Source: a virus. From it: DNA of 64,000 nucleotides. Each line of letters begins with the position of its first letter. The stretch's first letter is position 1. The stretch spans positions 1 through 64,000 of IMG/VR virus record IMGVR_UViG_3300030419_007002; one strand, 5' to 3'. Positions 11,651 to 59,294 of this stretch are shown here, one piece after another. A program made the translations under genes and the position numbers. The notes below the pieces were generated by a model. The model made no database searches. It was not told where the DNA came from and saw nothing but the letters and a program-made list of their open reading frames with translations.

Positions 11651-12411
11651 ATCGTTGCGTACTCATTATAATCCATGTTATACTCAAAAAAATCAAGTTC
11701 TAGATCGTGTTTTTTTCTTATTCGACCTCTCGCTTTTTCTGTTTTTAAAATAGAACTAACATGCGGCCTTTTATCTAGAGGCCTTGATTCGTTTTCTCTG
11801 CTTAGGGTTAAATTTGGTAACCCAATTTTGCCACAAAGATATGAAAAGTCTAGTCTCAGGCTGTCGTACTTCCCGATAAAATCTAAGTCTGTTTTAATGT
11901 CGAGGTTGCCGAGCGGGTCTGTTGTCTGGTTCTGTTTTTTGTCTACGCATAAAAAATCTAATAAATTATATTCCCAGCTATAATTTGAATTTATATATTG
12001 GTCAAAACTCATTTTTTTTATTTCTCTGTATTGTTCAATATAGCCTTCTGGTGAGGGGTCCCATTTGCCTTTGCTTTTCATCCACCAAAAGTAAAGAGAT
12101 AGGTATATGTCGTAAGGATTTCTCACAAAAGAAAATTTAAAGTATTGGTTCCATCTTCTAGTTCCGACGTGTCTTTTAGCCCATACTGCAGTGGAGTGCT
12201 TCCATGGTAGGCGCCCTTGCTCGTGTCTTTGTCCTGATCCACCTTTGAGGTTTTTGCTGCGATTATTATCCGAGAGTATTTCGTGATCATGGGTGTAGCC
12301 ATATACTTCATCTTTTTCACCTAAGTAGGGTAGGAGGGATCTCGCTATAGAGGTGCCGCCTGTTCGATGTATGTGCAAAAAAATAAAATTATGTTTATGA
12401 GAAATAATCAT
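11629..12411 (-). CDS. sulfotransferase family 2 protein
   Basis: MIISHKHNFIFLHIHRTGGTS, FSFVRNPYD..LSLY, DFIGKY. Confidence 0.8.
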   Translation of the reverse strand: MIISHKHNFIFLHIHRTGGTSIARSLLPYLGEKDEVYGYTHDHEILSDNNRSKNLKGGSGQRHEQGRLPWKHSTAVWAKRHVGTRRWNQYFKFSFVRNPYDIYLSLYFWWMKSKGKWDPSPEGYIEQYREIKKMSFDQYINSNYSWEYNLLDFLCVDKKQNQTTDPLGNLDIKTDLDFIGKYDSLRLDFSYLCGKIGLPNLTLSRENESRPLDKRPHVSSILKTEKARGRIRKKHDLELDFFEYNMDYNEYATMWEKYMM

Positions 12412-13496
12412 AACTGTTTATACGTCTCTGAATCTATGAAATCTTTTAAGAAAATGTCTGGCTTTAGTTTTTCTCTGATTGAGAAGTTCTTTAAGTATTC
12501 ATTGGTCTTTTTAATTAAGTCTAGATCAGAAGCTTTTCGGGCTGCGTCCTCTAGCGAATCAAAGTAAAATGGATATTCTGCCCCTAAATATTCTTCTACG
12601 GGTGGTATGCGGTTAATTAATAGCGGAGTGCATCTAGCCATCGATTCTATAACTGCGTTGTTCGCACTGGAATCATACATATCTAGGAAGGCTATGTTAT
12701 CTACGAATAGTTCGTCATAATCTTCATTGGGTATTCTATTGAGTTCTTCTACGTAGTTGTATTGATCCGTGCCGTAAATACCCCAAGCTGATCTGAGCCA
12801 AGTCTCATTCTTGAACTCTTCGGCTTTAAGCTGCTTGAAGAAGTCGTGCGCTTGGGTTCCTTTCTTGAATGGGAGGACTCTGGTTTTTGTGTACAAGTTC
12901 TTAGGTACTGGCAGTACATCTATAGAATTTATTTTCCTCAACCAATATCCAACATTAATTATCCTTTTGTTTTCGTTAGATTTAAATTTATCAAAATCAA
13001 ACTGTGAGTCGGGTATTTCTGATGGGTGGAATAGGGAAGAAACTGTTTTTCCTGTTTTTTCCCTGAGGAAATCTGCGTGACTTTCTGAGAGCGTCCATAG
13101 CCCCAAACAATAATCTAGACTATATTTGAAAGCGTCACTTTTGACTATCTCTTTGCCTGCGTATAGCTCCCCGCAGAACCAGTCCGGATGACGATTCGGT
13201 ATAGAGGCTGGGTTATGGAGGAAGCCGCACCATGGCTTTTTAAAAGGTAAAATTCCTTTTCTTTCGTATTCGTCTTTTCTCCAACAGAATAAGTCCTCTA
13301 GAAAACCGTGAAAGTAGACGCCTTGATCGTTGTGGATGGGTTTTAGAGCTCTCATGGCATACGCCCAACCGCTCCTATGAGAGGAAAATGTTACTTGAGT
13401 TCCTAGGTTTATTTTTCCTTCTGGGTTAGAGGGTATTAGGTAGGTGGTATCGTCCTGCCCAAAGGAATTAACTGATTTTACTCTTTCGTCTTCCAT
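12408..13496 (-). CDS. glycosyltransferase-like (GT-B) protein
   Basis: GYWLRK, SANNAVIESMARCTPLLIN, EYLG. Confidence 0.55.
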   Translation of the reverse strand: MEDERVKSVNSFGQDDTTYLIPSNPEGKINLGTQVTFSSHRSGWAYAMRALKPIHNDQGVYFHGFLEDLFCWRKDEYERKGILPFKKPWCGFLHNPASIPNRHPDWFCGELYAGKEIVKSDAFKYSLDYCLGLWTLSESHADFLREKTGKTVSSLFHPSEIPDSQFDFDKFKSNENKRIINVGYWLRKINSIDVLPVPKNLYTKTRVLPFKKGTQAHDFFKQLKAEEFKNETWLRSAWGIYGTDQYNYVEELNRIPNEDYDELFVDNIAFLDMYDSSANNAVIESMARCTPLLINRIPPVEEYLGAEYPFYFDSLEDAARKASDLDLIKKTNEYLKNFSIREKLKPDIFLKDFIDSETYKQL

Positions 13497-13604: not shown

Positions 13605-13632
13605 AAAAAAAAACCGATCCAAAAGGACCGGC
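13605..13632 (-). terminator. intrinsic terminator
   Basis: GCCGGTCC-TTTT-GGATCGGT followed by a T run. Confidence 0.8.
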
Positions 13633-13744
13633 TTTATTTTAATGCTCAGAGTTTATGAAAACTAAGAGAGCTAAGCAGGAACGACCCAATCCCCGCCTAT
13701 TCTGAACTCGCTCACTTGTCTCATAAGGGCCTCTTTGTTAGAGT
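13605..13744 (-). ncRNA. candidate ~140-nt structured RNA with predicted double pseudoknot
   Basis: TTGGAG-18-TATAAT upstream, nested helices, two cross-pairings, terminator; no ORF. Confidence 0.6.
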
Positions 13745-13784
13745 GTATATTATATCTCTGAGGTTTGTTTTTCTCCAACCTTTT

Positions 13785-13985
13785 TTACTCTTGGGGTTGG
13801 CCAGCTAGGTCTTTCGTGGCTGTAACTGGGGTTGGAGTTTCTTGCTCTAGCGCTACATCATTAAGTTTAACGATAGCGTAGGTGGTTAAACCAAAGTTAA
13901 GGGTTAGGAGCAACAATGCTAGTCGCGCATAAACGGTCTTAACTGTGGTGAGTTTGTTTGTTTTATTATTTTCTTCTTTATTCAT
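13785..13985 (-). CDS. small single-TM protein
   Basis: Hydrophobic LALLLLTLNFGLTTYAIV; TTGACA promoter upstream. Confidence 0.65.
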   Translation of the reverse strand: MNKEENNKTNKLTTVKTVYARLALLLLTLNFGLTTYAIVKLNDVALEQETPTPVTATKDLAGQPQE

Positions 13986-15216: not shown

Positions 15217-15775
15217 CGTAGTATTTAGAATAATGTTCGTGTTCTGATTTGTTTAGGTGGGGTACGTCGGATTCTATTTTTAATCTATCTAATATAGTAG
15301 CTGCATCTTCTGAGAAGTTCTCAAATCGACCTATAAAGTCCATGTCAATTTTTCCGCGTCTATTGATTAGGTATTTGACTTGAGACCAAGCGAAACCCAT
15401 GTGCTCAAAATATAAATTATCTAAAAATTGATTGAAGTCAGAGAGGCTGGAGTGATCTTCTACTTTTCTGAAGAGTGGGCCATCATCCGCATGCAAAAAG
15501 GAATCGGGCTGCAATCTGTGGCTAGAGATTCCCTTTTCGATTGCCACCTCTTTTTCCCAGAAATATAAAGAAACTACTAGGTCCCAAGGGTTCCTGACAA
15601 AGGCAAACTTAAAGTAATCGTTCCATTTTTGTCTGCCGTGAAGGGCCTGTAGCTCTCTGGCGTCTAAAAATGCATCCACCGGGGATTCGTTAACCGGCGA
15701 AATCGCGCTGGCAATAGATGTACCTCCGGTCTTGGGTATATGTATAAAGATAGCCTTATGTTCGTCTGATATCAT
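15137..15775 (-). CDS. sulfotransferase family 2 protein
   Basis: IFIHIPKTGGTS, FAFVRNPWD..VSLY, DFIGRFE, DI..FGYEF. Confidence 0.85.
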   Translation of the reverse strand: MISDEHKAIFIHIPKTGGTSIASAISPVNESPVDAFLDARELQALHGRQKWNDYFKFAFVRNPWDLVVSLYFWEKEVAIEKGISSHRLQPDSFLHADDGPLFRKVEDHSSLSDFNQFLDNLYFEHMGFAWSQVKYLINRRGKIDMDFIGRFENFSEDAATILDRLKIESDVPHLNKSEHEHYSKYYDEQTKEKVKTMFKEDIRYFGYEFSEE

Positions 15776-15821
15776 GTCTATATCTGAGAATGTTTACACA
15801 TTTAAAATCAAAAGTTCCAAT

Positions 15822-15872
15822 ATATCGTCCACCCTGAAAAAAAACTTCCTTGCGGTTCGAAAATCATTTTTT
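15822..15872. repeat. copy 2 of the ~53-bp intergenic repeat
   Basis: ATATCGTCCACCCTGAAAAAAAACTTCCTTGCGGTTCGAAAATCATTTTTT. Confidence 0.85.
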
Positions 15873-58880: not shown

Positions 58881-59294
58881 GGGAGCGTACTGGATTCGAT
58901 TTAGGGTCTTACGCCAGATTGCAAGTAGAGGATGATAGTTGGCCTCTTTAATAATCTATCTAGGAAACTTCAACTGCCGATAATATTGTTGATATGGCTC
59001 CTTCGCTTGACGAAGCTGATGCGATTCTCGCTAAGTTTGGTTGGACCGAAGAGGCCGCGATGGCAGCATAGATTGCCCCGTCCTACTCCGGATGCTCGTT
59101 AAGGAGATAGGGCGACGACAGCGAGCAAAACACTGGTTGAGTCTGGTTGAGTCTCCAGTTGCTTAAAAAAAGATAGACCAAACCTTACGTGAAGTTGTCG
59201 GTCACAGACACGTATTGCATTAGATCGACTAAGCTTGTAGTAATTTGAGCCGATGGCTTTAAAGACGCGGGTTCGATTCCCGCCGCTTCCACCA
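58881..59294 (+). ncRNA. ssrA: tmRNA
   Basis: GGGAGCG/CGCTTCC-ACCA acceptor with G3.U, GGATTCGA, GGTTCGATTCC T arm, tag ORF 58976-59071 ending AMAA*. Confidence 0.95.

Follow-up and report, generated by a model that had tools for sequence, protein, structure and literature searches.

In this study, we asked what is specified by the short stretch of minus strand that separates an hsp20 gene from a glycosyltransferase-like gene in a marine phage, and whether the RNA that it appears to encode is a gene in its own right or a part of a neighbour's transcript. The window, that is the whole stretch of 64,000 nucleotides that was analysed, corresponds to positions 1 to 64,000 of an IMG/VR virus record that is 104 kb long and is estimated to be 60% complete, and its source is a fragment of an uncultivated marine phage with a genome of well over 100 kb. 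The stretch is present in marine metagenomes, a DNA search of isolated phages returned no match to the window, and protein searches gave no close isolated phage, the best match of an 807-aa protein having at most 40% identity and that of the helicase at most 27%. On the minus strand the RNA is surrounded by the Hsp20 gene and by genes for sulfotransferases, a cupin and a phosphomannomutase. The protein encoded 3' of the RNA (362 aa, window 12408-13496, minus strand) is without a Pfam hit and is glycosyltransferase-like; it has more than 120 relatives, which are labelled GT1 or exostosin GT47-like in some sources, and many of which, from Planctomycetes and Cyanobacteria, contain TPR repeats. 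The window also contains a 66-aa ORF (orf66; 13785-13985, minus strand), which encodes a hydrophobic segment, has a TTGACA-17-TAATAT site of its own and sits between hsp20 and the RNA.

Read along the minus strand, positions 13605-13778 comprise, between a promoter-like site and a strong intrinsic terminator, a core of about 88 nt; no ORF is conserved here. The initial annotation had described the strand order A-B-C-D-E-A'-E'-C'-B'-D' followed by a terminator, and each of these parts was located on the minus strand at the coordinates given here, where B, C and E are referred to as stems P1, P2 and P3. A -35-like hexamer, TTGGAG (13773..13778), is followed 18 nt later by the -10 hexamer TATAAT (13749..13754); both were read directly and identified in a consensus scan, and together they may serve as a promoter. 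Transcription would then start near 13744, 5-7 nt past the -10 hexamer, and the RNA would begin with an unpaired 5' leader (13732..13744). A CUCU/AGAG hairpin that had been annotated in this leader can be seen in the window; however, it overlaps A by one base, is missing from the homologue described below and is the sole item of the annotated list that is not conserved. The leader is followed by A, the 5' strand of the first pseudoknot (GGCCC, 13727..13731, pairing with 13683-13687), which adjoins P1 without a linker, and then by the 5' strands of P1 (UUAUGAGA, 13719..13726, pairing with 13653-13660) and P2 (AAGUGAGC, 13710..13717, pairing with 13664-13671). D, the 5' strand of the second pseudoknot (GUUCAGA, 13701..13707, pairing with 13644-13650), lies in the 10-nt bulge between P2 and P3, and the 5' strand of P3 (UAGGCGGG, 13692..13699, pairing with 13672-13679) leads into an apical loop (13680..13691) that contains A' (GGGUC, 13683-13687). 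On the way back, the 3' strand of P3 (CCUGCUUA, 13672..13679) runs without a linker into that of P2 (GCUCUCUU, 13664..13671), and the 3' strand of P1 (UUUCAUAA, 13653..13660) is followed after 2 nt by D' (UCUGAGC, 13644..13650). P2, which had been given as GAGC/GCUC, can be lengthened to AAGUGAGC/GCUCUCUU if one U.U mismatch is allowed, and both of its strands are invariant. After a gap of 6-9 nt between fold and terminator comes the intrinsic terminator (13605..13635; hairpin 13635-13610), with an 11-bp stem, a UUUU loop and a run of nine Us. No terminator was found between hsp20 (and orf66) and the RNA, so that the RNA's terminator also ends the hsp20 transcript.

Evidence for this fold also comes from a second phage. 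Homologues were sought through an alignment of the closest relatives of the glycosyltransferase, which led to 45 viral loci, and nhmmer, a descriptor scanner and covariance models placed the RNA in one of them alone, L001, where it lies directly upstream of the orthologous glycosyltransferase gene. The L001 record is the sole close relative in IMG/VR, with a helicase that is 87% identical (the next best being 47%); 69% of the window's record can be aligned to it as DNA, at about 70% identity. In both phages the RNA is located between hsp20 and the glycosyltransferase gene, and the shared gene order is orf100, hsp20, RNA, glycosyltransferase, sulfotransferase, cupin, phosphomannomutase, sulfotransferase. 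The flanking signals have counterparts as well: L001 has TTGAAA at the place of the -35 hexamer, directly 3' of the hsp20 stop codon, TATCAT 16 nt past it, a partly conserved leader (UA.CAAA) whose length is about 12-13 nt in either copy, and a terminator at the same place with a GC-rich stem and a longer U run. The 66-aa ORF is missing from L001, where the promoter-like site of the RNA is the first feature past hsp20. Upstream of the L001 hsp20 gene (ATG at 2385) lies a sigma-54-type motif, TGGCAC-N5-CTGCT (2355-2369), which argues for a host possessing sigma-54.

The two cores are of equal length (88 nt), and 46 of the 88 positions are identical. P1 is UUAUGAGA/UUUCAUAA in the window and UUGUUUGGA/UCCAAACAA in L001, with four of its eight pairs changed on both sides and one on one side; P3, UAGGCGGG/CCUGCUUA in the window and UGGGUAAAAA/UUUUUACCCG in L001, has four of eight pairs changed on both sides and three on one. 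The same is seen in the crossing helices. In A (GGCCC/GGGUC in the window, AACGC/GCGUU in L001), which occupies identical alignment columns in both copies, two of the five pairs are changed on both sides, one on one side and none is broken, and in D (GUUCAGA/UCUGAGC and ACCUAGA/UCUAGGU, respectively) three of the seven pairs are changed on both sides and one on one side. In total, thirteen pairs of P1, P3, A and D are thus altered on both sides, and none is broken. Uncompensated breaks of A and D in a homologue had been named in the initial annotation as what would speak against these two pairings; L001 retains both with compensation. All pairs (100%) are kept in L001, versus 26-58% when the partners are slid by one to three columns. 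Based on the window copy alone, a covariance model recovered L001 at 44.7 bits (E = 1.6e-8), and RNAalifold returned P1, P2 and P3 independently. As the comparison comprises two full sequences and one partial variant, it is too small for a statistical covariation test such as R-scape. None of the seven P2 pairs is changed on either side in L001, and the 17 bases of P2 are invariant; since the stem shows no covariation, pairing of its lower AAG/CUU part is putative. Judged from these sequences, what selection appears to preserve is the pairing, together with the exact P2 sequence, and not the remaining sequence.

Folding calculations are in agreement with this picture. The fold z-score is -3.46 for the window copy, which is more stable than all 200 shuffles, and -4.92 for L001. 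Single-sequence minimum-energy folds differ between the copies and miss the consensus, and the consensus stems were therefore fixed before layered folding. With the nested stems fixed, the leftover bases give first D and then A in both sequences, and the fraction of shuffles of these bases that reach the observed energy is 0.002 and 0.01. Taken singly, D is strong, a complementary run of this length occurring in 0.5% of shuffles of the L001 tail, and A is weak, with a run of this length in about 10% of L001 5'-tail shuffles. The window copy contains five G.U pairs, which would be C.A mismatches on the opposite strand, and the minus strand is therefore the functional strand. A coding reading was considered and rejected: the chance ORFs of the two copies differ in frame and in sequence, and the absence of an ORF, which had been noted from the window alone, extends to the comparison, in which none is conserved. 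The pairing is conserved, the strand is set and the element is non-coding.

A third variant was found in a marine metatranscriptome run (X8) as a 151-nt contig, which covers 13661-13786 and continues through D'. In this variant C13710 is replaced by U, which turns the top pair of P2 into G.U, and G13709 is replaced by A. Its P1 3' strand, at the loose end of the contig, reads CUUAUAA and keeps eight of eight P1 pairs by swapping one G-C and one G.U, so both P1 and P2 pairing are retained. The -10 hexamer of the RNA-library variant is TACAAT, which differs at 13752 and retains A2 and T6. Contigs from two DNA runs, X2 and X3, are identical to the window across the RNA and add no variation. The presence of the variant in an RNA library weakly suggests that the region is transcribed, like hsp20 and orf66 in the same library. 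The contig extends upstream past the -35 site and spans the stop codon of the upstream ORF; it could come from upstream read-through RNA or from contaminating DNA, and contigs of this kind cannot reveal RNA ends. RNA-library contigs were also seen to span a diverged version of the 66-aa ORF.

Comparison with known families gave no match. A gathering-threshold scan of the whole window assigned no Rfam family to the RNA, and scans of both copies at E <=10 returned only weak sub-threshold hits that owe their scores to the terminator; the two copies have different best-scoring hits, and the few that are common to both are hairpin-plus-terminator models far below their thresholds. The view that the strand order does not fit HDV, twister or pistol was borne out, as none of these models is among the Rfam matches at E <=10 of either copy. 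The Rfam scans likewise contained no match to the twister, twister-sister, pistol, hatchet or hammerhead models or to the phi29-type pRNA model, and a CUGANGA...GAAA hammerhead core does not occur in the sequence. The HDV-like and twister ribozymes resemble the phage RNA in their similar size, their two crossing helices and an invariant core flanked by covarying stems. However, the order here is A-P1-P2-D-P3-A'-P3'-P2'-P1'-D', as opposed to P1-P2-P3-P3'-P1'-P4-P4'-P2' in HDV, and the pseudoknots of twister use internal and terminal loops where this RNA uses its tails. Flavivirus-type exonuclease-resistant RNAs (xrRNAs) are also compact, below 100 nt, and have two pseudoknots that likewise involve both tails, an apical loop and a strand from an internal junction. 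In xrRNAs the junction is the partner of the 5' end and the 3' tail that of the apical loop, whereas the phage RNA has these partners swapped, its 5' tail being paired to the loop and its 3' tail to the bulge; moreover, the phage RNA is a single extended hairpin without a three-way junction and without an Rfam match. The RNA is a new structured family and a new fold with an unusual strand order, and newness is claimed for the family and the fold, not for the function.

The explanation to which we give most weight, at roughly even confidence, is that the locus is a real non-coding phage RNA gene of about 140 nt, whose product works as a separate RNA in a shape-dependent manner and is neither the leader of the sugar genes nor a simple antisense RNA. 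Transcription would probably start at its own sigma-70-type promoter, with additional read-through from hsp20, and would stop at the strong intrinsic terminator. The 88-nt core would then fold into the three nested stems P1, P2 and P3 and two crossing helices, with helix A joining the 5' tail to the P3 apical loop and helix D joining the P2-P3 bulge to the 3' tail. The transcript ends, the arrangement in three dimensions and the function are inferences; according to this proposal the RNA would act through its folded shape, to which a protein or further copies of the RNA itself could bind.

The arrangement of the five helices in space is constrained by their linkers. P1 and P2 together have a strand length of 17 nt in both copies (8+1+8 and 9+0+8), and the distance covered by the P3 5' strand and the loop up to the end of A' is likewise 17 nt (8+4+5 and 10+2+5), even as P3 itself differs by 2 bp. 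With these matching 17-nt strands, A fits a monomer in which a P3-A stack lies beside a P1-P2 stack. D is tethered by 2 nt to the top of P2 and by 1-3 nt to the base of P3, and D' by 1-2 nt to the bottom of P1. With such short linkers, a 7-bp D helix cannot form in cis beside a straight P1-P2 helix of 16-17 bp, a point that the initial annotation had missed. D would instead form through a hinge or a tertiary motif in the invariant lower part of P2, through alternation between P1 and D, or through pairing between molecules. In this last case D' would pair with the D bulge of another RNA, possibly along with A and A', giving an antiparallel homodimer or a head-to-tail ring. We regard pairing of the tails between molecules as a possibility that falls well short of probable; it concerns the architecture only and is compatible with a stand-alone gene. 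Apart from the sterics, with P1 and P2 forming a near-continuous helix, it is favoured by the fact that the five helices use separate bases and that all variable ones covary, which argues for their coexistence. A phage precedent is the pRNA of phi29 (about 120 nt), whose bulge loop covaries with a hairpin loop and pairs with it hand in hand between molecules, so that pseudoknots unable to close in cis are not without parallel; however, that RNA belongs to small phi29-like phages and is encoded by the packaging genes, and the present phage is large, with hsp20 and sugar-modification genes as the neighbours of the RNA. Contacts between copies of one RNA, with covariation support, have also been described for OLE, ROOL and GOLLD (bioRxiv 10.1101/2024.12.08.627333). 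On the other hand, covariation cannot tell cis from trans, and a monomer may be possible if the lower part of P2 (AAG/CUU by the U.U mismatch) is the hinge.

The first alternative to a separate RNA gene is a cis-acting riboswitch or attenuator, which would respond to a metabolite such as a nucleotide sugar or a sulfate donor and adjust read-through into the glycosyltransferase-sulfotransferase-cupin-phosphomannomutase genes. The layout of a terminating riboswitch is present in both phages, with a complex conserved structured domain upstream of same-strand sugar genes and a terminator a few nucleotides further on. There are also precedents in manA and wcaG, orphan riboswitch candidates of marine phages and cyanophages that precede comparable genes, namely those for mannose and exopolysaccharide functions and ibpA (Hsp20-type), and a pseudoknot has been proposed for manA (PMC2864571). 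They share with the present RNA a marine phage origin and similar gene contexts. However, manA (RF01745) and wcaG (RF01761) gave no match at E <=10 in either phage record (G000, G001), and the present RNA and the downstream gene have a terminator and a distinct regulatory element between them. This 63-nt element (13601-13539, minus strand) begins directly after the U run and contains the box GGGTGGACGATATAT followed by TTGATT. It is repeated at 81% identity at 15810-15872 (minus strand), upstream of the sulfotransferase gene at 15775, which has no RNA of this kind in front of it; the box is exact in the repeat, and the record of the related phage (G001) retains it at the two orthologous positions, about 85189 and 80943. 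The element is probably a shared promoter or activator site of the glycosyltransferase (13496) and sulfotransferase (15775) genes. As the box is kept at orthologous places and repeated before a second gene, the glycosyltransferase gene has its own, apparently co-regulated, control region. A GTGTAAA sequence was also noted 3' of the conserved box in the sulfotransferase copies (window 15790-15800; G001 near 80960).

Inspection of both copies revealed no conserved antiterminator in which the domain would pair with one or the other terminator arm. A 7-bp GGAUUGG/CCGGUCC option with the terminator is found in the window copy only and has no counterpart in L001. Furthermore, the three variants differ in their junction bases (GA, GC or AA at one place and A or GAC at the other, in three sequences only), whereas ligand pockets are usually invariant. 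Taken together, the separate control region, the lack of a conserved antiterminator and the variable junctions argue against a classical terminator riboswitch, which we consider unlikely, and because the downstream gene has an element of its own and no antiterminator is conserved, we read the locus as a separate RNA gene and not as a leader. The earlier proposal of a stand-alone RNA is in part upheld by these findings: promoter-like sites are present in both copies and a separate regulatory element lies downstream; however, the metatranscriptome contig runs past the -35 site and shows no separate start.

A less probable alternative, to which we assign a low likelihood, is that the RNA is a 3' module of the hsp20 transcript, in which the knot blocks 3'-to-5' exonucleases and thereby stabilizes the mRNA or leaves a stable 3'-derived small RNA. 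This would be consistent with the uninterrupted path from hsp20 and orf66 into the RNA, with the RNA-library contig that spans the upstream stop codon together with the RNA, and with the fact that both RNA ends are tucked into helices, as they are in viral exonuclease-resistant RNAs. However, promoter-like hexamers precede the element in all three variants, a terminator hairpin is normally enough for stability, and the resistant RNAs known so far act against 5'-to-3' enzymes and have a different strand pairing.

We think it improbable, and more so than either of the two preceding explanations, that the RNA is a new self-cleaving ribozyme which would process either itself or the transcript reading through from hsp20. 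Phages commonly carry small ribozymes, the compact double-pseudoknot fold with its invariant core would suit such an activity, and the failure to match any known class would make it a new one; but the invariant bases lie in a helix and not in junctions, and the RNA occurs as a single copy per genome with a very narrow distribution. Equally doubtful is a base-pairing small RNA whose leader, or whose A/U-rich segment upstream of the terminator, would base-pair to an mRNA of the phage or the host, the fold having only a stabilizing role: the single-stranded, partly conserved leader of 12-13 nt, the A/U-rich linker and the terminator with a long U run are typical of Hfq-dependent small RNAs, yet P2 is better conserved than the leader, the sites that could pair with the invariant strands are scattered and do not correspond in position between the two phages, and an elaborate covarying fold is unnecessary for such a role. 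A separate RNA that acts through its shape and possibly associates with itself is therefore favoured over riboswitch, 3'-end stabilizer, ribozyme and antisense roles.

To our knowledge, almost every small natural RNA that contains two pseudoknots is a ribozyme, a riboswitch or an element that blocks nucleases, and new biochemistry has followed from each double-pseudoknot fold described so far. The RNA described here combines compensatory support for every variable helix with a strand order unlike that of the known classes, and the steric puzzle posed by D points to a hinge, a switch or self-assembly. We tentatively put forward, as a proposal less likely than the existence of the gene itself, that it is the founding member of a new class of small knotted phage RNAs in which the 3' tail enters the bulge of another copy to give a protein-free symmetric dimer or ring, or which represents a new self-cleaving or exonuclease-blocking fold. 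If so, a new RNA architecture would have been found from two genomes only. The RNA also shows that rare families can be recognized from two genomes when covariation is dense. At 88 nt, the core is easy to make, to probe, to assay and to solve structurally.

The RNA family is rare. An exact 23-mer of the RNA had no match in viral contigs, and a strict motif pattern found the L001 contig only. The same pattern gave eight hits in JGI metagenomes, which by eye were without the fold and of which seven are near-identical copies of one GC-rich stretch, and relaxed patterns run on GTDB genomes and viral contigs produced chance hits only, the best being a plain palindromic hairpin without a D bulge. 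Neither a single-protein search with the downstream glycosyltransferase nor an hsp20-anchored search returned anything, and a covariance model (R2) detected no further member in 72 related viral records, 30 with the glycosyltransferase and 42 with helicase relatives at <=47% identity. Published virus-wide RNA screens required at least three IMG/VR matches (PMC10690425), and a family this rare would be missed by them. A glycosyltransferase (P0001) that is 88% identical to the downstream protein was identified, and its contig may carry a closer copy of the RNA. No paralogue is present in the 104-kb record, and neither genome has a second copy. The window also carries genes for a tRNA-Arg and a tmRNA; the latter (window 58881-59294, plus strand) scores 124 bits in Rfam, and its tag peptide as predicted by ARAGORN is unusually long, with 31 residues ending in AAMAA.
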